Below are positions 7,932 through 59,812 of a stretch of DNA of 64,000 nt, in pieces. Position 1 is the stretch's first letter, and each line of letters begins with the position of its first letter. The translations under genes were made by a program, and so were the position numbers. The notes beneath the pieces were generated by a model. It saw nothing but the letters and a program-made list of their open reading frames with translations. It was not told the origin of the DNA and ran no database searches. Source of the DNA: an uncultured Treponemataceae bacterium (GTDB lineage Bacteria; Spirochaetota; Spirochaetia; Treponematales; UBA12059); the NCBI GenBank assembly GCA_964482955.1, contig CAYZZW010000001.1:95780-159779 (forward strand). The letters are read 5' to 3'.

Positions 7932-8505
7932 CGGCGTCCTCCCGCAGCGAGGCGAAGAGCCGCGAGCGGTCCTCGAACGCGCGCGCGAAGAGCCCGAGCG
8001 CGACCCCGGTGGCGAGGCCCGTCCCCAGGAAGAAGGGGGCGGTGAGCGCCGCGCCGGCGCCGAACACGAACACGCCCGCGAGGAGGAGCTGGACGGAGTT
8101 GGACAGCGTCGCGCCGATCACCGACAGCCCGAGCGGCGAGACGAGCCGCCCGAACAGCCGGCGCGCGCCGAACATGGACAGCGCCGAGGCGAAGGTGCCG
8201 GCGAGGGAAAAGAGCGCGACGTAGGAGAAGAGCGAACCGGAGACCACGCTCATGCCTATCACCTTGACGAGCGCGAGGGCCAGGAACCAGCCGAAGGGCA
8301 GGAGGTCGACGGCGAGGAGGAGGGGCAGGTTGGCGATTCCGAGCCGCATGAACGGCAGGGGCTTGGGGATCATGTACTCGAGGGCCGAGAGGAAGAACGC
8401 GAGTCCCCCGAGGAAGGCCGTGACGCGCGCGAGCTTGGCGGACGATCGCGGCGGCGCGGGCAAGACCGACGAACTATCAGCGGACGATCGCGTCGGGAGC
8501 TCCAT
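7921..8505 (-). CDS. Gx transporter family protein (annotated historically as heptaprenyl diphosphate synthase component I)
   Basis: This is the C-terminal 194 aa of ORF 7921..8760, starting at the internal ATG 8505. The sequence (LEYMIPKPLPFMRLGIANLPLLLAVDLL.. and polytopic) matches my recollection of the Hpre_diP_synt_I family. The upstream 85 codons of the ORF are Arg/Ser/Pro junk that overlaps the NusG-II gene. Confidence 0.6.
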   Translation of the reverse strand: MELPTRSSADSSSVLPAPPRSSAKLARVTAFLGGLAFFLSALEYMIPKPLPFMRLGIANLPLLLAVDLLPFGWFLALALVKVIGMSVVSGSLFSYVALFSLAGTFASALSMFGARRLFGRLVSPLGLSVIGATLSNSVQLLLAGVFVFGAGAALTAPFFLGTGLATGVALGLFARAFEDRSRLFASLREDAGAA

Positions 8506-8848
8506 CGTCGCCGCCTCCTTCCACGCGGACCATGACGCCGTTCGGCAAGCAGGCCGTCCACTGGCCCGGCTTCGAGACGCGGCCGGCCGCGACGCAGGTC
8601 TGGTTGTCGCAGGGGGACGATTCGACGTACGCCGCGCCGTGGCCGACGCGGACCACCGTGGAGCCGAGGGGGCCCGGCACGTCGACCGTCCGGTCGCGGT
8701 CCAGGGGATAGATCCACGACTCGGTCTTCGTCTCGATGACGACGCGGGGTTCGCCGCCACGTCCGTACGCGAACGCGGCGGACGCCGCCACCGCCGCGAT
8801 CCCGACGATCACGAGCGCCACGTCGACCGCCGTCACCTTCGTCCGCAC
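8477..8848 (-). CDS. NusG domain II-containing protein (DUF1312-like), membrane anchored
   Basis: Based on ORF 8477..8968, with the start moved to GTG 8848 (MRTKVTAVDVALVIVGIAAVAA TM anchor). The motif AAYVESSPCDNQTCVAAGRVSKPGQWTACLPNGVMVRVEG is typical of NusG_II proteins that pair with Gx transporters. The upstream part of the ORF lies in a repeat. Confidence 0.6.
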   Translation of the reverse strand: MRTKVTAVDVALVIVGIAAVAASAAFAYGRGGEPRVVIETKTESWIYPLDRDRTVDVPGPLGSTVVRVGHGAAYVESSPCDNQTCVAAGRVSKPGQWTACLPNGVMVRVEGGGDDGAPDAIVR

Positions 8849-8896
8849 AGATACGCCCCCATTGTCGAAAGGCAACCACGGAGGCAGGGAGGTTCG

Positions 8897-9035
8897 GCCA
8901 CGGAGATCACGGAGAGAAGAAGGGGATAGGAGTATCGGAACGGAAAACCCAATTCCGATTTCCTCCATGAAGTCCTTTTAGCTCCGTGTCTCCGTGCCAA
9001 CGCTCGAGCGCTCGCTAAGCTTCGCTCCGTGGCTA
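8897..9035. repeat. H foldback element, copy a (CACGGAG/CTCCGTG variant) with an AACGCTCGAG..CTAAGCTTCGCTC tail
   Basis: The left arm is CCACGGAGATCACGGAG and the right arm is CTCCGTGTCTCCGTGCC. The tail recurs at 34324..34355. Confidence 0.7.
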
Positions 9036-9047
9036 AATTTTCATCGA

Positions 9048-9632
9048 TTAGTGGCAGCCGCCGCAGGAGCAGCCGTGTTCCTTCTCGTCGCCGTCGCCGC
9101 AGTCGCCTTCGCAGTCGCAGTCGTCGCCGCAGGCGTCGCCGCATTCCCCGTCACCGTCGCCGCAGCCGCAGGAGCAGGCGCCGTGGACGTGGCCGTGCGA
9201 AAGCTCTTCGGCGGTGGCCTCGCGGACGTCGAGCACCTTCACCGCGAAGTGGAGCGTGTCGCCGGCCAGCGGGTGGTTGGCGTCGACCGTGACCTGGTCG
9301 CCTTCGATGGCGGTGACCGTGAGGATGCCGGGACCCTCGTCGGTGCGGAACTGCGTGCCGACCTCGAGCTCGGGGAAATCCTTGAAGCGGTCCTTGGGGA
9401 CCTGGAAGACGAGATTGTCGTCGTACTCCCCGTACGCGTCCGCGGGCGGCACGGAACAGGCGACGTCGTCGCCGTTCGTCTTGCCGTCGAGATGCTTTTC
9501 GAGGCCGGGGATGATGTTGGCGTTGCCGTGCAGGTAGACGAGGGGTTCGCCTTCGGACGAATCGATGATTTCGCCTTCGTCGTTCTTGAGCGTGTACTCG
9601 ATGCTGACCACGCGGTCCTTTTCGATGACCAT
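9048..9632 (-). CDS. slyD: FKBP-type peptidyl-prolyl cis-trans isomerase SlyD with a Cys/Asp/His-rich metal-binding tail
   Basis: Based on ORF 9048..9725, with the start at ATG 9632 (MVIEKDRVVSIEYTLKNDEGEIIDSS..). The FKBP and IF domains are recognisable (ANHPLAGDTLHFAVKVLDV). The C-terminal tail is HGHVHGACSCGCGDGDGECGDACGDDCDCEGDCGDGDEKEHGCSCGGCH. Confidence 0.85.
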   Translation of the reverse strand: MVIEKDRVVSIEYTLKNDEGEIIDSSEGEPLVYLHGNANIIPGLEKHLDGKTNGDDVACSVPPADAYGEYDDNLVFQVPKDRFKDFPELEVGTQFRTDEGPGILTVTAIEGDQVTVDANHPLAGDTLHFAVKVLDVREATAEELSHGHVHGACSCGCGDGDGECGDACGDDCDCEGDCGDGDEKEHGCSCGGCH

Positions 9633-9804
9633 GATGACTCCTCTGGGGGCTGGATCGATGACCGGCGTCGCGTCGAGGCTTGGGCCGGAAAATCTTCTCA
9701 GGTGGGGGTATGACCGCGCCGTCACGTGCGGGCGGGATCCGGCACAATATATAGAAAAGACCGCGCCGAAACAAGTCCGGAGCCCGCCCGAACGCCAGTT
9801 TCCG

Positions 9805-10770
9805 TCAGGCGCGCCCGTAGAGGAGGCGGCCGGAGTCGAAGGACGCCCTGAGTTCGCCCTTTTCCGCCAGCCAGGCTAGGTACGACCTGATCGTGCTCCC
9901 GACGAGGGCGTACTGGGCGTGGTTCATGGACAGGCCGTGTCGCCGCGCGGCGAAGGCGAGGACTTCGTCGGGGCCCGACGGCTCGCCGCAGGCTTCGAGG
10001 CAGAGCTCGGCGGTTTCCAGCACGCGGGCCCGGTTGTACGCGACGAGCGGCCGGATGTCCCGGGTCGGCTCGGCGTGGCTCGGCACGAACCAGTCGGCCT
10101 CGAAGGCTTCGAGCAGGTCGAAGGTGCGGAGCTGGGCTTCGATGTCGCGCAGGTAGAAGATCCGGTACTTGTCGAGGATGGCCTCGGAGGCGACCGTGTC
10201 GGCGCAAAAGAGGACGCGATCCGGCGTGAAGACGCCGATCATCCCGAGGAAATGCCCCGGCAGGGGCACGAGGGATAGCTCCGTGCCTGGCACCTGAGTG
10301 CCCGGCACCATACCCGGACCGGTGTCTGACACCGTGCCTGGCACCTGAGTGCCTGGCACCTGAGTGCCCGGCACCGTGCCCGGCGCGTCCAGGATGTCGT
10401 CCACGGCGCAGGGTTCGGCCATGAGGAACTTGGTGCGCAGCGCCTTGGGGGGATACCCGCCCCAGAGCAGGGAGGGCTCGAGGAAGGGATGCTCGATCAC
10501 GGCGGCTTCGAGCGCGGTGGCGCCCACGCGGCAACCCGTCCGCGCGCGGACGAAAGCCGCGCCGCCCGAGTGATCGGCGTTCGAATGCGTGAGGACGAGG
10601 CGATCGACGCGGAGCCCGGCCGCCTCGACGGCCTTGAGGAGACGGCGGCCCGCGTCGGCGTCGTTGCCCGCGTCGACGAGGGTCGCGCCGCCCGAGCCGT
10701 CCGCGACGAGACCGAGGTTCGTGGGCCCGCGCGCGACCGCGGTGCCGCCCGCGAGGGTTTCGAAGGTCAT
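9805..10770 (-). CDS. MBL-fold metallo-hydrolase carrying an in-frame VPGTQ repeat insertion
   Basis: This is the C-terminal 321 codons of the artefactual 877-aa ORF 9805..12438. The start is ATG 10770 (MTFETLAGG..). It has the HxHxDH motif (LTHSNADHSGG) and a later PLPGH. The insertion GTVPGTQVPGTQVPGTVSDTGPGMVPGTQVPGTE is encoded by palindromic repeats. Confidence 0.8.
   Translation of the reverse strand: MTFETLAGGTAVARGPTNLGLVADGSGGATLVDAGNDADAGRRLLKAVEAAGLRVDRLVLTHSNADHSGGAAFVRARTGCRVGATALEAAVIEHPFLEPSLLWGGYPPKALRTKFLMAEPCAVDDILDAPGTVPGTQVPGTQVPGTVSDTGPGMVPGTQVPGTELSLVPLPGHFLGMIGVFTPDRVLFCADTVASEAILDKYRIFYLRDIEAQLRTFDLLEAFEADWFVPSHAEPTRDIRPLVAYNRARVLETAELCLEACGEPSGPDEVLAFAARRHGLSMNHAQYALVGSTIRSYLAWLAEKGELRASFDSGRLLYGRA
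10281..10386. repeat. P palindromes (GTGCC[T/C]GGCAC, GGTGTCTGACACC) in a 15-bp in-frame tandem arrangement inside the MBL-fold CDS
   Basis: Seven palindrome copies were read directly from the sequence. They encode VPGTQ-type pentapeptides on the minus strand. Confidence 0.85.
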
Positions 10771-10787
10771 GGACGAAGGGAAACGCC

Positions 10788-11477
10788 TTACGGCGCGCGG
10801 ACGGTTTCCACCATGTAGCTCACGCCGGCGCCGGAGGCGCCCGCGAGCTTCTTTTCGACGATGAAGACGAGGGTGCGCTCGTCCGGGGCCATGACGATGC
10901 GCCGGATCGCGTAGCCCGCCACCCCGTCGCGGCTGAAGGTCGGGTTGCCCGCTTCGAAGCGGCGCACGGCCCCGTCCTTCGTCGTGACCGACACGGAGAT
11001 GCCGAAGCTGGAACTGGCGTTCTTGCCCGACTCCGTCACGCTCTGGGACAGCTTCACCGCGTATTGGTCGCCCGTCTTGAAATCCTGGAAGGACAGCGCG
11101 TCCGTCTGCGGGGCCCCGTCGAGGAGTACGTACACGAGGCGGCCCTGGCGGAGGTGGTCGATCTTCCGCGTCTTCACGACGTCGAGCCGTTCCCCGTAGA
11201 GCGCGAAGATGGCGCCCGCGGGATCCTGGCCGGGCTCGAGCCGCGACGAGTACGAGCGGCGCGAAACGCCGTCCTTCACGAAGTCGTTGCGGCGGGTGTC
11301 GACCAGGTAGAGTTCCGCGTACGGCTGGCCGGAAGCCTCGTCGATGCCGTACTGCCCGAAGCAGAAAAAGGCGGAATCGGGCGAAAACCCGAGGTTGACG
11401 AAGGCGGGCACGTCGCCGGCCCACGCGGCCGCCGCGGCGGAGGCGATGATCGCCAGAACGAACAGGGTACGTTTCAT
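10788..11477 (-). CDS. hypothetical secreted protein (possibly DUF2259-like)
   Basis: A 229-aa ORF with signal peptide MKRTLFVLAIIASAAAAAWA-GD. The composition is protein-like. The family name is only a tentative recollection. Confidence 0.5.
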   Translation of the reverse strand: MKRTLFVLAIIASAAAAAWAGDVPAFVNLGFSPDSAFFCFGQYGIDEASGQPYAELYLVDTRRNDFVKDGVSRRSYSSRLEPGQDPAGAIFALYGERLDVVKTRKIDHLRQGRLVYVLLDGAPQTDALSFQDFKTGDQYAVKLSQSVTESGKNASSSFGISVSVTTKDGAVRRFEAGNPTFSRDGVAGYAIRRIVMAPDERTLVFIVEKKLAGASGAGVSYMVETVRAP

Positions 11478-25785: not shown

Positions 25786-25874
25786 GCGGACGACTGCGCG
25801 GACGGCGCGTCACCGGGTGACGCCCAGGTGTTCGCGGCGTTGGCCCCGCGGGAATAAGCCCAGGACGAAGAGTT

Positions 25875-25930
25875 GCCACGAAGGACACGAAGTTCAGCCG
25901 CGAAGGGCACGAAGGAAGAGAAGAAGTAAT
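25875..25930. repeat. H element, copy b (left arm only)
   Basis: GCCACGAAGGACACGAAGttcaGCCGCGAAGGGCACGAAGGAAGAG. Confidence 0.7.
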
Positions 25931-25955: not shown

Positions 25956-25986
25956 GCCCGCGGCGAATGTGCCGCGGGCTTTTTTC
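25956..25986 (+). terminator. intrinsic terminator after the M20 hydrolase gene (also the first part of the putP-flanking repeat)
   Basis: GCCCGCGGC-gaatgt-GCCGCGGGC followed by T6. Confidence 0.8.
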
Positions 25987-26115
25987 AAATTGGGCGTCGA
26001 GCGGAGCGAGACGGAAGGGGTAGCGGAAAGGAAAACCGTCGCGGACGCGGCGGCTTTCCTTGGAGCGAGGGGAAGACCTTCCCCTCCATAAAAATCGCGG
26101 GCGCTCCGGCGCGGG
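25956..26115 (+). repeat. putP-flanking direct repeat, upstream copy (uninterrupted)
   Basis: It consists of the terminator hairpin, then GGGCGTCGAGCGGAGCGAGACGGAAGGGGTAGCGGAAAGGAAAACCG, then ~30 nt, then GGAAGACCTTCCCCTCCATAAAAATCGCGGGCGC. Confidence 0.8.
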
Positions 26116-27896: not shown

Positions 27897-27926
27897 GCCC
27901 GCGGCGATGAGCTGCGGGCTTTTTTC
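27897..27926 (+). terminator. intrinsic terminator after putP (a repeat of the 25956 terminator)
   Basis: GCCCGCGGC-gatga-GCTGCGGGC followed by T6. Confidence 0.8.
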
Positions 27927-28084
27927 AATTGGGGCGTCGAGCGGAGCGAGACGGAAGGGGTAGCGGAAAAGAAAACCGGCGCGCACGCGCTCGAAAAGAA
28001 GGTTCGTGCAGGGATGACGCGATGCGCGACAGCGCATGAATCAATCCATTCCTCTCGGCAAACGACGCGAAGCGGCGTATGCAC

Positions 28085-28155
28085 GAACCACACGCGCCGA
28101 ACGCACGGCGTTCGGCGATGTCAAAAATCCGCATGGACGCGGATTTTTGACTGGG
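28085..28155 (+). repeat. K-element copy b (core only), nested inside the putP-flanking repeat
   Basis: GAACCACACGCGCCGAACGCacgGCGTTCGGCGATGTCAAAAATCCGCatggacGCGGATTTTTGAC. Confidence 0.75.
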
Positions 28156-28212
28156 GAAGGCTTTCCCCTCCATAAAAATCGCGGGCGCCCTTTCGGGGCG
28201 CCCGGAGCGATG

Positions 28213-28733: not shown

Positions 28734-28885
28734 CACCACGAAGGACACGAAGGTTTTGCCACGAAGAGCACGAAGAAGAGGAAATGTGGTTATCGGGAAC
28801 CGGTGGCTTTTCCCTTCTTCTTCCCCCTTCTTCCCCTTCGTGATCTTCGTGGCTGAACTTCGTGTCCTTCGTGGCTGTTTTCCTC
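28734..28885. repeat. H foldback element, copy c (complete)
   Basis: The left arm is CCACGAAGGACACGAAGgttttGCCACGAAGAGCACGAAGAAGAGG. The centre is about 30 nt. The right arm is CCTTCTTCCCCTTCGTGATCTTCGTGGCtgaaCTTCGTGTCCTTCGTGG. Confidence 0.8.
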
Positions 28886-30670: not shown

Positions 30671-30710
30671 GCGCGGAACGCGCTTGAAGAAAATGCCCGT
30701 GCACGACGCA

Positions 30711-30860
30711 CGGACCACACCAGCTGAACGCCCTGCGTTCAGCGATGTCAAAAATCTACAGGGACGTAGATTTTTGACTTGGGTGTTCCGCTGCAAATCC
30801 TCGGCGCGTCGTTCCTCCGCGCCTCCGGTTTTTCCGCTTCACCCCCTGGCGCTCGTCCTC
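30711..30860 (+). repeat. K-element copy c (core plus extension)
   Basis: GGACCACACCAGCTGAACGCcctGCGTTCAGCGATGTCAAAAATCTACagggacGTAGATTTTTGACTTGGGTG.., ending ..CACCCCCTGGCGC. Confidence 0.75.
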
Positions 30861-34178: not shown

Positions 34179-34360
34179 ACCACGAAGGCCACGAAGTGCA
34201 GCCACGAAGGTCACGAAGGAAGAATGGTAGGAAAAAAGGGAAATATCATTCTTCGGATTTCAGATTCCGATTCTTCCAACCTCTTATCCCCTTCGTGTCC
34301 TTCGTGGTCAAACCTTCGTGCCCTAACGCTCGAGTACTCACTAAGCTTCGCTCGTGGTGA
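34179..34360. repeat. H foldback element, copy d (complete, with tail)
   Basis: ACCACGAAGGCCACGAAGtgcaGCCACGAAGGTCACGAAGGAAG .. CCCCTTCGTGTCCTTCGTGGtcaaaCCTTCGTGCC, followed by the AACGCTCGAGTACTCACTAAGCTTCGCTCGTGG tail. Confidence 0.8.
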
Positions 34361-37932: not shown

Positions 37933-37954
37933 GCGTTTTGGGGATTATCGGGAG

Positions 37955-38127
37955 GGTGCGGCGGACGATGTCGGAACGAATCAACCGAAGCGGTGGTGGT
38001 ATAGCTATCCACGCCGAATAGGCGAGAGTACTCGCAATATTCGGCGTGGATAGCTATACCACCACCCAGCGGTCGAATGCTGTACGTCATTGGGCGCCGG
38101 GTATCCCCGGTAATGCCGCATGACGGC
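37955..38127 (+). repeat. S-element copy C (structured repeat; candidate ncRNA or MITE)
   Basis: 5' GGTGCGGCGGACGATGTC.., a 29/29-bp hairpin at 37992..38066 (GGTGGTGGTATAGCTATCCACGCCGAATA / loop GGCGAGAGTACTCGCAA / perfect complement), and 3' ..GCCGCATGACGGC. Confidence 0.8.
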
Positions 38128-38344
38128 AGTGATGCCGGACGAGAAGCGGGGGCATGTATCCTGGCGGACTTTGGACTAGCTAAGACCCGGCTCATACGAT
38201 TCAAACAAGCTGGCGCCACCTTGACCCGGTAAGGCCGCACGCCTTGCCACGGGCCGATGGCCCGTGGCGGCGACGAGCTTCTTTCGTCGACCCCCTAAAG
38301 CGAAAGAATCGCCACAAGCTTTCGTTTACTAAGTACCGCCCGGA

Positions 38345-38432
38345 AGCTTCCTATCCCTAAATCCTTTCTCCCTCTTCCTTCGTGTTCTTCGTGTTCTTCG
38401 TGTTCTTCGTGTCCTTCGTGGTTGCCTTTCCG
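38345..38432 (+). repeat. H element, copy e (right arm; 9-bp unit CTTCGTGTT x3 plus variants)
   Basis: AGCTTCCTATCCCTAAATCC..CTCTTCCTTCGTGTTCTTCGTGTTCTTCGTGTTCTTCGTGTCCTTCGTGG. Confidence 0.8.
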
Positions 38433-51878: not shown

Positions 51879-52087
51879 TGCGTTCCTCCTGGTCTGGGCG
51901 TTGTAATGATAAACCGCCCGTTTTTCGGCGGCCGTGACGAGAAAATCCTGAAACTGAACCCCAGACCTCCATATAAGCACGGTTTCCGCGTATCGTCAAC
52001 CATGAGACGTCTCCGCGTGCCGCCAGACGGTTCGCCCTTCCGCCCTGCGGCTCAGATTACAACGAGCGGGCTTAAACCGAGAGAAGA

Positions 52088-52261
52088 ATGCGGCGGACGG
52101 GTGTCGAACCGGATCAACCCGGGTTTGGGGCATACAAGTACCCGTGACGAATAGGCGAGAGTACTCGCGATATTCGTCGCGGGTACTTGTATGCCCCAGC
52201 CGGCGGTCGCAACCGTTTCGCCATCGGGCGCGGCCTGACGCCAGTAAAGCCGCACGACGGC
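52088..52261 (+). repeat. S-element copy B
   Basis: ATGCGGCGGACGGGTGTC.., a hairpin at 52127..52197 (26/27 bp, loop GGCGAGAGTACTCGCGA), and ..GCCGCACGACGGC. Confidence 0.8.
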
Positions 52262-52323
52262 AAGCAGGCCACATCTCTGTAGTGCGGTTCCATCTTGCAC
52301 CAGGCTCCGGCCGGCATTAACCC

Positions 52324-52454
52324 GGTGTCTGACACCTTTTCGTCGGTGTCTGACACTTTCCCGCCGGGTGCCTGGCACCTTCTCGTCCGACCGGTGCCTG
52401 GCACCTGCTGCGGACTGGTGCCTGGCACCTTTACGTTCGGCCGGTGCCTGGCAG
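52324..52454. repeat. array of six P palindromes (2x GGTGTCTGACAC[C/T], 4x GGTGCCTGGCA[CC/G]) at 21-26 bp spacing
   Basis: The copies start at about 52324, 52345, 52367, 52393, 52417 and 52443. The array is intergenic, between S-element B and the stop codon of the PtsN-like gene. Confidence 0.85.
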
Positions 52455-52461
52455 CGGCGGT

Positions 52462-53004
52462 TCAACCGTTTTCCCAGGAGCGTTCGACGTCTTCGACGAA
52501 GGCGAGGAGGCGGGATTGGGCCGGGCGTTCGGCGAGGAGGGCGCGGAAGTCATCCATGCGGCAGAGGTAAGAGAGGCGGGAAAGCGTCGCGAGGTGGTTC
52601 TTCGAAGAGGCGGAGAGGATGAGGAAAAGTACGGAGACCGGCGTGCGGTCGAGGGCGCCGTATTCGACGGGGGGATCGAGGAAGAACACTGCGACGCGCT
52701 CGTCGGCTTCGTCTCGCAGCAAGGGTGTCCGCGGATGTGGAAACGCGATACCGCGCCCGACCGCGGTCGAATTCATCGCTTCGCGGTCGAGAAGGGCGGC
52801 GAGCAAGCCAGGCTTGTCCGTTCCCTGCGCCAGGTCGAGCAGATCGACCGCGCGCTCCAGCACCAGCGAGACCGCCGCGGTGGCCCTTCCTGCACCCCCG
52901 GCGCTGCCGTGTGCTGATGCGTCGTAGTCGAGGGCGCTACCCGGCGCGGCTAGGCGGTGGACGCCGCCGCGCGTCATCAGCGTACCGATCGAAGCTTGCG
53001 GCAT
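52462..53004 (-). CDS. PTS EIIA type-2 domain protein (PtsN-like)
   Basis: A 180-aa ORF. GRGIAFPHPR carries the phosphorylatable His, and VLFLILSASSKNHLATLSRL is typical of the family. The exact start is uncertain. Confidence 0.7.
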   Translation of the reverse strand: MPQASIGTLMTRGGVHRLAAPGSALDYDASAHGSAGGAGRATAAVSLVLERAVDLLDLAQGTDKPGLLAALLDREAMNSTAVGRGIAFPHPRTPLLRDEADERVAVFFLDPPVEYGALDRTPVSVLFLILSASSKNHLATLSRLSYLCRMDDFRALLAERPAQSRLLAFVEDVERSWENG

Positions 53005-56890: not shown

Positions 56891-57127
56891 GAGGCGATTC
56901 GGGGGTGTGCGGCGGACGAGTGTCGGACCGGATGGACCGGGGCGTGGGGCATACCAGTACCCATGACGAATAGGCGAGAGTACTCGCAATATTCGCCATG
57001 GGTACTGGTATGCCCCACCCGACGGTCGCATGCGGTGCGCCATCGGGAGCCGGATGGCCCCGGAAACGCCGCACGACGGCTCGCAGATCGAACGAATCGC
57101 GGTGGGCTTGGTTGGGCTATGGACCGA
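56891..57127 (+). repeat. S-element copy A (longest form, with an outer GCGATTCG/CGAATCGC pairing)
   Basis: A hairpin at 56946..57016 (26/27 bp) has the same apical module. GTGCGGCG at 56907 is complementary to CGCCGCAC at ~57067. Confidence 0.8.
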
Positions 57128-57145: not shown

Positions 57146-57184
57146 GGTGCCTGGCACCCTCTGGCCGACCCGGTGCCTGGCACC
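57146..57184. repeat. two P palindromes (GGTGCCTGGCACC) 26 bp apart
   Basis: They lie directly to the right of S-element A and upstream of the Rpn gene. Confidence 0.8.
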
Positions 57185-57238: not shown

Positions 57239-58213
57239 ATGTCACAGTCTTTCAAGTTGCTCGATGTGTTCGTCCGATGGCTGTTCTCGCGGCCGGGCAA
57301 CGAGCAGATCCTGCTCGCGTTCCTGAACGCCGTCATGCGCGACGCGAAGGAGACGGAACTCGCCGCGGTCAAGGTCTTGAACCCTTTCAATCCCGGCGAA
57401 TACAAGGGCGAAAAGGAGTTCATCCTGGACGTCGCCGCGAAGGATTCGCACGGCCGTCTCTTCGACTTCGAAATCCAGTCGTACCGCGAGGAGGATTACG
57501 CCAAGCGGGCGCTCGCCTACTGGGCGCGGCTCCATGCGAGCCAGCTCCGGAAAGGCGACGACTACCTCGACGTCCATCCGACCGTCGGCGTCCACCTGTG
57601 CGACTACAACAACCATCCCGAGATCGCGGAAGGTCACCTGATCGTCGACGCCACCTTTCGCGGCCATCCCGACATTCTCGCCTCGGACGACTTCCAGCTC
57701 CATTTCGTCGAGCTGCCGAAATACTACGACCGTTCGGGCAAGCGAGGGCTGTCGGACTTGGAAAAGTGGGCCGTATGGTTTACTTTTGAACCGGAGAAGG
57801 ACGACACCATGAGCGACCGCCCCTGGCTCCCGGAAGACCTCCGGGACGACCCCCAGTTCATCGATCTCGAAAAGCAATACCGCGAGTTCTGCACGGACGA
57901 AGAGCTCCGCTACATCGCCGAAAGCCGTTTCCGCTTCATCACCGACGTCGCGAACGAAAAGTCGTGGGCCCGGCGCCATGGTTTCGCCGAGGGCAAGGAA
58001 CAAGGTCTTGCTGTAGGAAAAGCTGAAGGCAGGGTCGAAGGCAGGGTCGAAGGCAGGGCTGAAGGCAGGGCTGAAGGCAAAGCCGAAGGGAAAATCGAAG
58101 GTTTGGAAGAAGGCAAATTGGAAGTCGCACGCAAGCTCAAAGCCGCGGGCATGTCCATAGAGCAGATTGTCGAGTTTACCGGACTTGAGCCAACCGCGAT
58201 TCAAGGGCTTTGA
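57239..58213 (+). CDS. Rpn family recombination-promoting nuclease / putative transposase (PD-(D/E)XK; T. denticola-type family)
   Basis: Based on ORF 56963..58213, with the start at ATG 57239 after GGAGG. The N-terminus is FKLLDVFVRWLFSRPGNEQILLAFLNAV. The nuclease core is ILDVAAKDSHGRLFDFEIQ. The C-terminal repeat EGRVEGRVEGRAEGRAEGKAEGKIEGLEEGKLEVARKLK is typical of this family. The GC content looks lower than in neighbouring genes. Confidence 0.75.
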   Translation: MSQSFKLLDVFVRWLFSRPGNEQILLAFLNAVMRDAKETELAAVKVLNPFNPGEYKGEKEFILDVAAKDSHGRLFDFEIQSYREEDYAKRALAYWARLHASQLRKGDDYLDVHPTVGVHLCDYNNHPEIAEGHLIVDATFRGHPDILASDDFQLHFVELPKYYDRSGKRGLSDLEKWAVWFTFEPEKDDTMSDRPWLPEDLRDDPQFIDLEKQYREFCTDEELRYIAESRFRFITDVANEKSWARRHGFAEGKEQGLAVGKAEGRVEGRVEGRAEGRAEGKAEGKIEGLEEGKLEVARKLKAAGMSIEQIVEFTGLEPTAIQGL

Positions 58214-58221
58214 TCTTCGTT

Positions 58222-58590
58222 GAGGCGATTCGGAGGTGTACGGCGGACGAGTGTCGGACCGGATGGACCGGGGCGTGGGGCATACCAGTACCCATGACGA
58301 ATAGGCGAGAGTACTCGCAAAGCAACGTCGCGGGCAGCAATTCGAAGCACTGAAAACCCTCGTGACGCTTTCCGGAAAGGTGCGGCGATTTTATTAGGAC
58401 CGTATAGGTCGGGTCCTGTCGCTGAAAAAAGCATGGTATCATTCGGAGTACCTCACGATACCATGCTTTTTTCACGCCACCCGACCCGACGCATTCGATC
58501 CTACAAGCTGGCGCCGGATGGCCTCAGAAACGCCGCACGACGGCTCGGAGGCCAACGAATTGCGGCGGGCTTTATTCGACTATGGATCGG
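58222..58590 (+). repeat. S-element D: a truncated unit D1 (58222..58320) joined to a divergent complete unit D2 (58374..58590)
   Basis: D1 is nearly identical to the left half of copy A and stops exactly after the apical module GGCGAGAGTACTCGCAA. D2 has GGAAAGGTGCGGCGA.., a different hairpin, and the conserved right flank GCCGGATGGCC..CGCCGCACGACGGC. Confidence 0.75.
58425..58472. terminator. bidirectional terminator-like hairpin (the hairpin of divergent S-element unit D2)
   Basis: AAAAAAGCATGGTATC-16 nt loop-GATACCATGCTTTTTT. Confidence 0.55.
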
Positions 58591-58747: not shown

Positions 58748-59392
58748 ATGAAGGTTTCGAGCGTCGTGGGAATCGTGGCGTCGGCGGCCGCGGTCGTGGC
58801 GGTAGCGGTCGCCGTGATCGCGGTGGCGGTTACGAAAAAAGCGCCGTCGCCGGAAGTCGTGAAGCGCGAATTCACGGCGTACGTGGAAACGTTGGCGCCC
58901 GCCGGGTGGCTCGTCCTGGTCGAGGGGCGCGAGCGCCTGGTCGTGCGGGATACCGTGAAGGGCCAGCTGTTCGGGAACACGATGCTCGGGGAGTTCCTCA
59001 AGATACGGTCGGACGCGGTCATCGAAGTCGAAGCGTGGGCGGACACGCTGTACGGCGTGCGGCTCGAGCCTGCCGCTTGGTCGTTCGCGGTCGACCCGCG
59101 ACCGAAGCGGCTGTCCGTATCGGCGCCGGCGCTCGAAGCCCGTACGCCGGCCATCCTCACCGAAACGATCACCGTCCGGCTCGTCGACAAATCGATACTC
59201 GTGAACGAGGCGAAGGTCGCGGAATCGATGAAAGCGGCGCTCACCGCGCGTTTCATCGAATACGCCGCAAGCCGCGCGGGCGCGGCGGATACCCAGACGA
59301 AGGCCACGGACGGTCTGCGGAATATCGTAATGGGCTTTTTGAAGAAAGCGGACCTTGTCGCGGAAGCGGTGGACGTGACGTTCGGGCGATAG
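58748..59392 (+). CDS. membrane-anchored hypothetical protein (DUF4230-like)
   Basis: Based on ORF 58712..59392, with the start at ATG 58748 (MKVSSVVGIVASAAAVVAVAVAVIAVAV TM). The leaderless-type promoter TTGCGG-N17-GACAAT-N7-ATG lies upstream. The family name is tentative. Confidence 0.55.
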   Translation: MKVSSVVGIVASAAAVVAVAVAVIAVAVTKKAPSPEVVKREFTAYVETLAPAGWLVLVEGRERLVVRDTVKGQLFGNTMLGEFLKIRSDAVIEVEAWADTLYGVRLEPAAWSFAVDPRPKRLSVSAPALEARTPAILTETITVRLVDKSILVNEAKVAESMKAALTARFIEYAASRAGAADTQTKATDGLRNIVMGFLKKADLVAEAVDVTFGR

Positions 59393-59590
59393 GAAAGGTG
59401 CGGCGAACTATATCGAAGCGGATTGACCGGGACCTGGGGCATACAAGCACCCGCTACAAATAGGCGAGAGTACTCGCAATATTTGTAGTGGGTACTTGTA
59501 TGCCCCACCCGGCTGGTTCATTCGGTTCGTCATCGGGAGCCGGATGTCCCCAGTAACGACGCACGACGGCACGCAGGCCGCCGAATCGCG
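59392..59590 (+). repeat. S-element copy E
   Basis: It starts at the last base of the TAG stop of the upstream gene. The hairpin at 59436..59506 pairs 25/27 bp and has the same apical module. The 3' end is ..GACGCACGACGGC..CGAATCGCG. Confidence 0.8.
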
Positions 59591-59737: not shown

Positions 59738-59812
59738 GCCTTCCTATCTTAAGCCCTCTTACTCTTCCTTCGTGTCCTTCGTGTCCTTCGGGTCCTTCGT
59801 GGTAGATTTTCC
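59738..59812 (+). repeat. H element, copy g (right arm)
   Basis: GCCTTCCTATCTTAAGCCCTCTTACTCTTCCTTCGTGTCCTTCGTGTCCTTCGGGTCCTTCGTGG. Its left part aligns with copy e. Confidence 0.8.

Follow-up and report, generated by a model that had tools for sequence, protein, structure and literature searches.

An in-frame palindrome array in an MBL-fold hydrolase gene

In a 64,000-nt stretch of DNA from an uncultured Treponemataceae bacterium (GenBank assembly GCA_964482955.1, contig CAYZZW010000001.1, positions 95,780 to 159,779; hereafter, the window), a gene on the minus strand that encodes a predicted metallo-β-lactamase (MBL)-fold hydrolase was found to contain, within its coding sequence, an array of short palindromes that lengthens the protein relative to its homologs. 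Comparison with two intergenic arrays of the same window favors, with fair probability, a joint reading in which genic and intergenic copies belong together, with a core of GTGYCWGRCAC and a full form of GGTGYCWGRCACC, and in which the genic array was seeded at, and amplified from, a Val-Pro-Gly-Thr (VPGT) motif native to the protein family.

The genic array comprises seven copies of GTGYCNGRCAC, one of them with a mismatch, at 10283..10386, together with one degenerate unit (GGTCCGGGTATG). In the form GTGYCYGRCAC, the palindrome occurs 13 times in the window, where 0.31 occurrences would be expected, and each of these lies either in the gene or in one of the two intergenic arrays. Six are genic (plus-strand positions 10283, 10298, 10322, 10334, 10349 and 10364), five fall at 52325-52428 and two at 57147-57183, with the seventh genic copy, at 10376 (GTGCCCGGCGC), being the one with the mismatch; the seven copies that the original prediction had placed in the coding sequence were hence recovered. 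A strict 13-mer, GGTGYCTGRCACC, matched seven times in the window (none expected), the sole genic match corresponding to the TCTGA variant at 10321, and GTNCCNGGNAC was encountered once outside the arrays in the 64 kb.

Spacings between successive genic copies are 15, 24, 12, 15, 15 and 12 bp, multiples of 3 throughout, and Tandem Repeats Finder reported a 15-bp array at 10283-10376, along with 21- and 26-bp arrays at 52323-52453. The genic period of 15 bp given earlier thus describes part of the array, spacings of 24 and 12 bp also being present, and can no longer be taken as an adaptation to coding, given that 15 bp is a common period in intergenic arrays elsewhere. A 26-mer, GTGCCTGGCACCTGAGTGCCCGGCAC, appears twice in the gene, at 10283-10308 and 10349-10374, such that at least one segmental duplication must have taken place. 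The two intergenic arrays lie where they had been reported, with spacings of 21, 22, 26, 24 and 26 bp in the first and of 26 bp in the second, in agreement with the period of 21-26 bp assigned to them. The first comes to within 8 nt of the 3' end of a phosphotransferase system EIIA-like gene (52462..53004, minus strand), and the second precedes a PDDEXK_2 'transposase' gene (57239..58213, plus strand) by 55 nt. In these 64 kb, one array stands at a gene 3' end and the other between divergent genes. Coordinates of the features considered are collected in Table 1.

Table 1. Positions in the window of the palindrome arrays, their component units and the gene that holds the in-frame array.
Feature	Position	Strand	Remarks
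MBL-fold hydrolase gene	9805..10770	-	Intact, 321 aa; supported by Pfam Lactamase_B match, homologs and AlphaFold2 model
In-frame palindrome array	10279..10386	-	Units APGT, VPGTQ, VPGTQ, VPGT, VSDT, GPGM, VPGTQ, VPGTE; 12 to 15 bp each
Native-position VPGTE unit	10279..10293	-	GTG CCA GGC ACG GAG, at the family V-P-G-T-x motif
Extra 81 bp relative to homologs	10294..10374	-	27 codons, residues 133-159; from alignments
15-mer CCGGTGTCTGACACC (VSDT unit)	10319..10333	.	Same as first unit of intergenic array 1
Intergenic array 1	52324..52454	.	Two GGTGTCTGACAC(C), three GGTGCCTGGCACC, one GGTGCCTGGCAG
Intergenic array 2	57146..57184	.	Two GGTGCCTGGCACC 26 bp apart

RNA of the genic array was predicted to fold with a minimum free energy of -79.4 kcal/mol, as compared to -64.0 ± 4.3 kcal/mol in shuffled sequences (z=-3.6), and predicted folding of the DNA likewise departed from shuffles (z=-4.0). 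The potential for hairpin formation proposed for this array is accordingly supported. By contrast, the array had also been portrayed as a likely hotspot for length variation, and no such variation was seen across three sources, namely, the window and two Logan assemblies.

The insert lies at a native Val-Pro-Gly-Thr motif

A search of 5.8 billion proteins yielded 530 homologs of the MBL protein, and the insert was measured on a 72-sequence alignment as the segment running from ..MAxPS.. to LPGHF. This segment spans 58 residues in the window protein, as compared to 31 in some 55 of the 72 sequences, corresponding to an insert of 27 residues (81 bp). Designating particular copies as 'new' is arbitrary, since the flanking unit carries the identical motif. 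In the peptide, the array reads ...APGT VPGTQ VPGTQ VPGT VSDT GPGM VPGTQ VPGTE LSLVPLPGH..., meaning that the insert occupies a loop just before the PLPGH strand, as had been proposed.

Apart from the MBL protein itself, the closest homolog is a 297-residue protein from a Spirochaetes metagenome-assembled genome (MAG), P0002, which is 66-72% identical and the gene for which has a DUF2259 neighbor gene, as in the window. The consensus of the loop across the family is ..PPCxVPGTxLxAxPLPGHF, with VPGTE or VPGTx being native in many homologs of 50-72% identity; at the position of the insert, VPGTE is present in P0002, P0004, P0013, P0017, P0020, P0021 and P0084, and VPGTQ in P0024. In the syntenic ortholog (contig L003), the motif is encoded by GTT CCG GGG ACA GAG (GTTCCGGGGACA), i.e., an imperfect palindrome that has not expanded, and no palindrome copies were found within the surrounding 33 kb. 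Because VPGT(E) is a family motif at exactly this site, the array would appear to have grown from, or to have been seeded at, native codons.

Among the 530 homologs, the palindromic insert was found in the window lineage only. Members of a Rectinema-type clade hold unrelated inserts of 16-54 residues at the same loop, which suggests that this loop is generally tolerant of insertion. These inserts were ruled out as palindrome arrays, their DNA not being built of palindromes and their GC content at third codon positions (GC3) being like that of the rest of the gene.

The AlphaFold2 model of the protein, calculated with the 72-sequence alignment, is confident overall (predicted local distance difference test [pLDDT] score, 92.7; predicted template modeling score, 0.90). 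Low confidence is confined to residues ~131-160, between the strands formed by residues 125-127 and 166-169, where block means are 53, 44 and 67 and no secondary structure is assigned. The structure prediction that had been called for to examine exposure of the insert hence presents it as coil, with pLDDT values of 44-67. The strand that follows the insert ends in PLPGH, the His of which is a conserved metal ligand; judging from this topology, the insert would be situated at the strand end distal to the metal site. The insert is thus predicted to be a disordered surface loop compatible with an otherwise confident fold, and, on the basis of the alignment and the model, the enzyme would seem to stay intact despite its presence.

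Other properties of the protein agree with its assignment. The coding sequence comprises 321 codons without a stop, and its translation includes ...DAPGTVPGTQVPGTQVPGTVSDTGPGMVPGTQVPGTELSLVPLPGH... Pfam family PF00753 (Lactamase_B) matches residues 14-232 (E=1.2e-20; 74.7 bits, cutoff 22.7), with Lactamase_B and Lactamase_B_2 being the only Pfam families matched. The best Foldseek matches are the MBL-fold proteins 5i0p, 5u8o, 2zo4 and LACTB2, and the wider structural neighborhood consists of the uncharacterized MBL-fold proteins 5i0p, 5u8o, 6ao1 and TTHA1429, with LACTB2 and PqsE also nearby. The canonical H-x-H-x-D-H metal motif is not present. Instead, residues 61-67 read T-H-S-N-A-D-H, with Asn replacing the second His; in the 72-sequence alignment, the subfamily shows no variation at H62, D66 and H67 and almost none at N64. 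The fold is that of an MBL protein, yet the metal chemistry of this HxNxDH subfamily may differ. Cys80 is likewise conserved in the subfamily, and the C-terminus is extended by ~90 residues of helical structure.

The possibility that the gene is a pseudogene, raised together with the original prediction, was ruled out, as the open reading frame (ORF) is intact, every family-invariant residue is kept in the alignment and the fold is confident. An assembly artefact is similarly unlikely, because two independent Logan assemblies, SRR10083292 and SRR10083294, encode exactly the same protein, with the contig from the former (L001) matching window positions 8347-11427 with 0 mismatches. Downstream of the MBL gene, an FKBP-type isomerase gene (9048-9725, minus strand) encodes a Cys/Gly/Asp/His-rich tail (..GACSCGCGDGDGECGDACGDDCDCEGDCGDGDEKEHGCSCGGCH) that is specified by 6-21 bp tandem repeats at 9085-9169 and that we take to resemble the metal-binding tails of SlyD-type proteins.

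Palindromy and the VPGT reading frame are linked through the genetic code. When V-P-G-T is written as GTN-CCN-GGN-ACN, positions 1/11, 2/10, 4/8 and 5/7 of the resulting 11-mer are complementary whichever wobble base is used, such that self-complementarity extends to 8 of the 10 paired positions and the sequence becomes a perfect palindrome when Val is encoded by GTG and Gly by GGC. In one frame, the palindrome accordingly specifies V-P-G-T on either strand, with the variant GTGTCWGACAC specifying V-S-D-T; because of this property, a Pro/Gly/Thr-rich disordered surface loop would be the expected product. Based on the codon usage of this genome, the probability that VPGT be encoded as GTGCCNGGCAC is 0.29, as opposed to 0.018 for GTGCCWGGCAC, given that CCA and CCT account for 2% and 4% of Pro codons, respectively. 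Each of the eight genic cases of the two palindromes uses the VPGT or VSDT frame, for which random choice of frame would give (1/3)^8 = 1.5e-4. Either seeding at native codons or selection against the alternative frames, which are rich in Cys, Arg, Trp and His, would be consistent with this bias.

Genic and intergenic copies share sequence and variants

Some of these observations could be explained without recourse to the intergenic arrays. VPGT(E) is ancestral at the exact position of the insert, palindromy follows from the genetic code to the extent that GTGCCNGGCAC is expected in 0.29 of VPGT cases, head-to-tail units of 12/15 bp, along with a 26-mer in duplicate, are what slippage typically yields, and a Streptomyces ORF contains a (VPGT)x3 tract coded in the same way. 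As such, the 15-bp VPGTE unit may simply have been duplicated by slippage of native codons, with the resemblance to the intergenic arrays being coincidental. This course of events, although conceivable, is considered unlikely, given the codons of the insert and their relation to the intergenic copies.

In terms of codons, GC3 amounts to 0.72 in the insert and to 0.91 in the remainder of the gene (Fisher p=0.003). The insert relies on rare codons, CCA (2% of Pro codons) and ACT (3% of Thr codons) each being used three times, GGT twice and TCA (1% of Ser codons) a single time. CCA is found in three VPGT units, TCA in the VSDT unit and ACT in three units. Likewise, host codon usage would deliver a W (A or T) at the center of the palindrome with a probability of ~0.06 per event. 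By contrast, W is found at ~98% of centers in the intergenic family, where 433 copies from other genomes have A in 229 cases, T in 196, G in five and C in three (W in 425 of 433).

In terms of shared sequence, the 15-mer CCGGTGTCTGACACC occurs in the window at 10319 and at 52322 only, against 0 expected, and contains the compensated variant GTGTCTGACAC, a point against pure slippage of native codons. A 14-mer, GTGCCTGGCACCTG, is present in three genic copies and at 52394 in an intergenic array. The C..G and T..A variants of the palindrome, which differ by a compensated double change, are mixed both in the gene and in the intergenic array. Elsewhere, such mixing is rare, having been seen in 15 of 132 T..A arrays from metagenomes, mostly in the form of half-variants, with a single canonical copy. 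Finally, the 64 kb are otherwise devoid of the palindrome and of VPGT repeats, no VPGT being present in the other confident ORFs of the window (0 in 13.7k aa). The notion that a palindromic repeat colonized a coding region thus gains support from the codons and from the 15- and 14-mers that tie the gene to the intergenic arrays. It requires amendment in that the site, being natively VPGT(E), was not a naive one.

Palindrome arrays in other genomes

To address the distribution of such arrays, one genome per species of the GTDB was scanned for two copies of GTGCCTGGCAC 2-16 nt apart, yielding at least 120 loci. The matches listed include Thermoleophilia, Acidimicrobiia, Planctomycetota, Acidobacteriota and Myxococcota, as well as Gammaproteobacteria, Verrucomicrobiota, Clostridia and cultured Bacillaceae. 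Arrays of GGTGCCWGGCACC (L005-L124) and of GGTGTCWGACACC (L132-L251) were found in many bacterial phyla, with at least 120 loci each; in the case of the T..A variant, it was metagenome contigs that were scanned, giving at least 120 loci. Although flanking bases were not part of the search, position -1 is occupied by G in 66-75% of copies and position +11 by C in 60-80%, from which the full form GGTGYCWGRCACC emerges. In these arrays, cores are conserved, spacers are variable and periods of 15, 18 and 21-26 bp are favored. By a GC-phase test, most arrays fall at points where there is a switch of coding strand or frame, with an excess between convergent genes (18 of 47, p=0.03; 32 of 66, p=3e-5) and a depletion between divergent genes. 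Multiple dispersed arrays per genome were seen.

The background against which these numbers should be read is a crude one, comprising ~5 unrelated palindrome pairs in 870 kb of flanks, a rate at which many GC-rich palindromes could have hundreds of arrays in the 596 Gb. For this reason, the argument that arrays are the same across phyla relies on features that the searches did not impose, namely, the W center and the flanking G/C (60-80%), and the arrays may represent either a single family or families that converged. Scans of viral contigs gave 0 matches to GTGCCWGGCAC and 4, 1 and 0 matches to control palindromes, and are uninformative as to whether this palindrome is special. Among the papers that could be searched by exact sequence, none reports these palindromes in a bacterial context.

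Several assigned roles were considered for the arrays. When ORFs lying up to 2 kb from the arrays of the 120 loci listed were compared with one another by BLAST, no conserved protein family appeared beside arrays at more than five loci. Operator or centromere sites of a neighboring gene were ruled out on this basis, the largest neighbor cluster spanning five of the 120 loci listed. Sigma-54 promoter or enhancer sites were also rejected, because the window arrays either lack the -12 element or have it at the wrong distance (TTGC is missing at the spacing of TGGCAC-N5-TTGC) and because arrays are abundant in Actinomycetota, which are not known to possess sigma-54. A role as terminator was dismissed, as just two palindrome copies fit a weak terminator pattern. 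At gathering thresholds, Rfam returned two tRNAs and no other family over the window, and a permissive Rfam scan of 51950-52550, around array 1, gave only sub-threshold chance matches.

In a Planctomycetaceae MAG, the palindromes are embedded in a larger composite one, itself perfect and ~55 nt long (GGTGCCTGGCACGTGCCGTGCAGTGCCAGGCACTGCACGGCACGTGCCAGGCACC), present at L013:5994-6189, L030:1522-1715, L033:3835-4029, L097:5532-5716 and L108:4604-4819 as pairs ~143-163 nt apart around non-conserved sequence. Parts of these composites (TGGCACG-N4-GTGCA) are sigma-54-promoter-like on both strands, representing the sole near match of this kind. In Rossellomorea vietnamensis (L074:3621-3681), a three-copy array lies directly downstream of a gene encoding a 446-residue protein, the N-terminus of which may be that of sigma-54 (RpoN/SigL); this placement is probably a coincidence.

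In-frame copies were also noted in other genes. In a gammaproteobacterial MAG contig (L039:823-872), three copies of GTGCCWGGCAC, with periods of 18 and 21 bp, lie within a gene encoding the SrkA/YihE kinase, where they correspond to a 16-residue insertion, eevpgteavpgtfgtv, relative to the Escherichia coli structure 1zyl (E=7e-80). This SrkA loop is hypervariable among 27 close orthologs of 70-94% identity. Short loops without VPGT are found in P0138, P0141, P0181 and E. coli, P0129 presents a lone VPGT encoded by a different W-centered palindrome, GTACCTGGTAC, and P0151, P0146 and P0124 hold one to four copies of GGGACWGTCCC. Hence, at the SrkA loop sites of these Steroidobacteraceae-like Gammaproteobacteria (L039:823-872, L252:10286-10324, L255:408-491, L254 gene 6096-7079 and L253 gene 10001-11056), the palindrome differs by species, being GTGCCWGGCAC, GTACCTGGTAC or GGGACWGTCCC and encoding VPGT, GTVP, GDCP or GQSP. 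In P0146 (L255:408-491), GGGACWGTCCC is read in three frames (as GQSP, GTVP and GDCP), with spacings of 28, 16 and 29 bp, such that it is only the total that is in frame. The statement that these palindromes are tolerated in coding sequence only in a frame-preserving register therefore applies to the MBL array, each spacing of which is in frame, but not to this locus, where divisibility by 3 is a property of the sum. In-frame VSDT arrays were furthermore found in four metagenomic ORFs. The VPGTVPGT of RsmB at L101, considered as a second insertion, was rejected, since it aligns without gaps to homologs in the PDB and so represents an in-frame occurrence only.

Origin of the insert

The mechanism that is held to be the probable one combines seeding by homology with slippage or template switching. 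Val-Pro-Gly-Thr codons of the native loop, which already mimic the palindrome, would have served as the seed, with this native look-alike being converted to, or replaced by, the W-centered form of the element. Repeat- or hairpin-mediated events, for which slippage during replication, template switching and recombination with other copies (unequal or ectopic) are the candidates, would then have amplified it to about seven or eight units, with the 26-mer being duplicated as a segment in one such step. Only those products with a net length change divisible by 3, in this case +81 bp, would have survived. Most likely, the insert is neutral or slightly deleterious 'selfish' DNA rather than an adaptation.

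Several points weigh against this account of seeding and amplification. Two or three of the genic copies have a C/G center, which is atypical of the family; these CCG-containing copies may be native or may have been ameliorated. The codon argument relates to few events, given that the W-centered copies descend from one another by duplication, and the order of events cannot be reconstructed, as the nearest ortholog is just 66-72% identical and no intermediates are at hand. The (VPGT)x3 tract of Streptomyces is a coding repeat without demonstrated involvement of an element. No enzyme or mobilizing gene was identified, nor any conserved neighbor in the 120 loci listed, and both the abundance of the family and the expansion of VPGT sites were judged on 64 kb of the genome.

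Loops that gained palindromes without having had VPGT direct attention to a different possibility, namely, de novo insertion of a mobile repetitive extragenic palindromic (REP)-like element into a random loop by an enzyme, be it a REP-associated tyrosine transposase (RAYT) or a PD-(D/E)XK transposase, with the native VPGT being irrelevant. The ancestral SrkA loop (E. coli ..AFNGQTLL.., P0138, P0141, P0181) lacks VPGT and yet gained one to three units, with related species having gained a different palindrome in other frames. Arrays are, moreover, dispersed and numerous in individual genomes, and array 2 lies 55 nt from the PDDEXK_2 'transposase' gene. At the MBL gene, such an event would have had to land by chance on the single VPGT of the gene, which is improbable when VPGT is absent from 13.7k aa elsewhere in the window. 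Likewise, no protein family is conserved beside the arrays (largest cluster, five of the 120 loci listed), and neither a target-site duplication nor the ends of an element can be seen in a unit of just 11-13 bp. De novo insertion is accordingly regarded as improbable. Less plausible still is an adaptive role, be it as a flexible tether or lid, in translational regulation through mRNA hairpins or in contingency-type length variation. In its favor are the strong mRNA structure (z=-3.6), the variation in loop length shown by other lineages of the MBL family and the occurrence of one and the same array in three sources. Against it, the insert is found in this lineage alone among 530 homologs, is predicted to be disordered and sits where the strand begins that has the PLPGH histidine at its far end. 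Its codon usage is poor, no length variants were seen and, all of its periods being in frame, it could not act as an on/off switch.

A broader interpretation, put forward tentatively and thought doubtful, would extend seeding to other genomes. Here, a previously undescribed, cross-phylum class of W-centered palindromes of 11-13 bp would spread as arrays at gene 3' ends and repeatedly seed in-frame inserts in surface loops of housekeeping enzymes, the MBL gene and the SrkA kinases being examples, and would thereby constitute a general, unrecognized source of loop-length variation. Its cores, namely, GGTGCCWGGCACC, GGTGTCWGACACC, GGGACWGTCCC and GTACCWGGTAC, mostly with a C-W-G center, would be acted upon by a shared process specific for sequence or hairpin, with VPGT and VSDT, as 'self-complementary codon quartets', providing both the landing pads and the only tolerated frame.

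Other repeats in the window

The PDDEXK_2 'transposase' (57239-58213) matches the PD-(D/E)XK family with E=1e-34, and its C-terminus is an (EGRx)n tract arising from a 12-bp tandem repeat at 58025-58089. A link between this gene and palindrome arrays was not found in other genomes.

A repeat of ~190 nt that forms a long hairpin is present in five copies, at 37939-38133, 52072-52267, 56891-57086, 58222-58550 and 59381-59576, two of which are ~57 nt upstream of palindrome arrays. Alignment of four copies (excluding that at 58222) revealed compensatory changes at 13 of 63 predicted pairs and an invariant center, AATAGGCGAGAGTACTCGC, with no Rfam family matching at threshold. This repeat could be an element of the miniature inverted-repeat transposable element (MITE) type or a structured RNA. 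A second family of short repeats consists of intergenic tandem CTTCGTG(T/C)(T/C), with the complement CACGAAGG, at 38378-38420, 59766-59801, 25865-25914, 28836-28877 and 34180-34219, in two cases downstream of a ~190-nt hairpin copy. Intergenic repeats furthermore form two additional pairs, i.e., 25967-26049 and 27907-27989 (92% identical), and 28081-28156 and 30708-30783 (83%), the latter including a terminator-like hairpin (AAAAATCCGC..GCGGATTTTT).

Significance and relation to known systems

The array in the MBL gene reflects a real, though probably neutral, route for the growth of protein loops. If the proposed seeding is true, very short palindromic repeats lengthen loops of conserved enzymes, recurrently at the same structural positions across lineages. 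The native mimicry by VPGT and the specification of the same benign peptide in either orientation would offer a testable path from selfish DNA to protein-length variation, and would explain the recurrence of VPGT, VSDT, GTVP, GDCP and GQSP peptides in predicted proteins. Inserts of this sort can mislead annotation, alignment and structure-based assignment of function, and mark loops that are tolerant of engineering.

Of the systems described to date, the Rickettsia palindromic elements would be the closest analogue. These are palindromic repeats that occur in frame in many unrelated genes and that are thought to be structurally tolerated (PMC10969869); they are MITE-like units of ~100-150 bp encoding a conserved peptide of 30-50 residues and are restricted to Rickettsia. 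Like these elements, the palindrome considered here is found both between genes and in ORFs, in frame, with the insert falling in a surface region predicted by AlphaFold2 to be compatible with the fold. It differs in that its unit of 11-15 bp is ~10 times shorter, in its organization as tandem arrays, in having relatives in many phyla and in the coincidence of the insertion with a native motif encoded by the palindrome itself.

Similarities also exist to palindromic amphipathic repeat coding elements (PARCELs), which are dyad-symmetric tandem coding repeats of patchy distribution across distant taxa, thought to be mobile within and between genomes (PMC2996958). The amphipathic domain that PARCELs specify is 25 residues long and belongs to dedicated repeat proteins, which are often membrane-targeted. 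The window array is likewise a tandem coding repeat with dyad symmetry and a patchy distribution. By contrast, its unit comprises four to five Pro/Gly/Thr-rich residues in an enzyme loop, and PARCELs are without intergenic counterpart arrays.

The label REP-like, given to the palindrome at the outset, would hold for its location, which in other genomes is at gene 3' ends and between convergent genes, but seemingly not for its anatomy. Canonical REPs are species-specific, imperfect palindromes of 20-40 bp that frequently bear a GTAG or CGTC tag and are accompanied by a cognate RAYT transposase. With REPs and the bacterial interspersed mosaic elements that they form, the present arrays share short, GC-rich, clustered, multicopy palindromes with hairpin potential and, in other genomes, enrichment between convergent genes and depletion between divergent ones. 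They depart from them in presenting a perfect, W-centered core of 11-13 bp, found in many phyla, with no RAYT among array neighbors.

As with ordinary slippage repeats, units of the window array are arranged head-to-tail, come in multiples of 3, derive from an adjacent native motif and lie in a disordered loop; unlike such repeats, they show codon usage foreign to the gene and identity with intergenic arrays that includes the compensated variant. Lastly, the highly iterated palindrome HIP1 (GCGATCGC) of cyanobacteria, likewise very short, is abundant within genes as well as between them, in the form of dispersed single copies. It differs from the palindrome described here in that HIP1 forms no tandem arrays that lengthen proteins.

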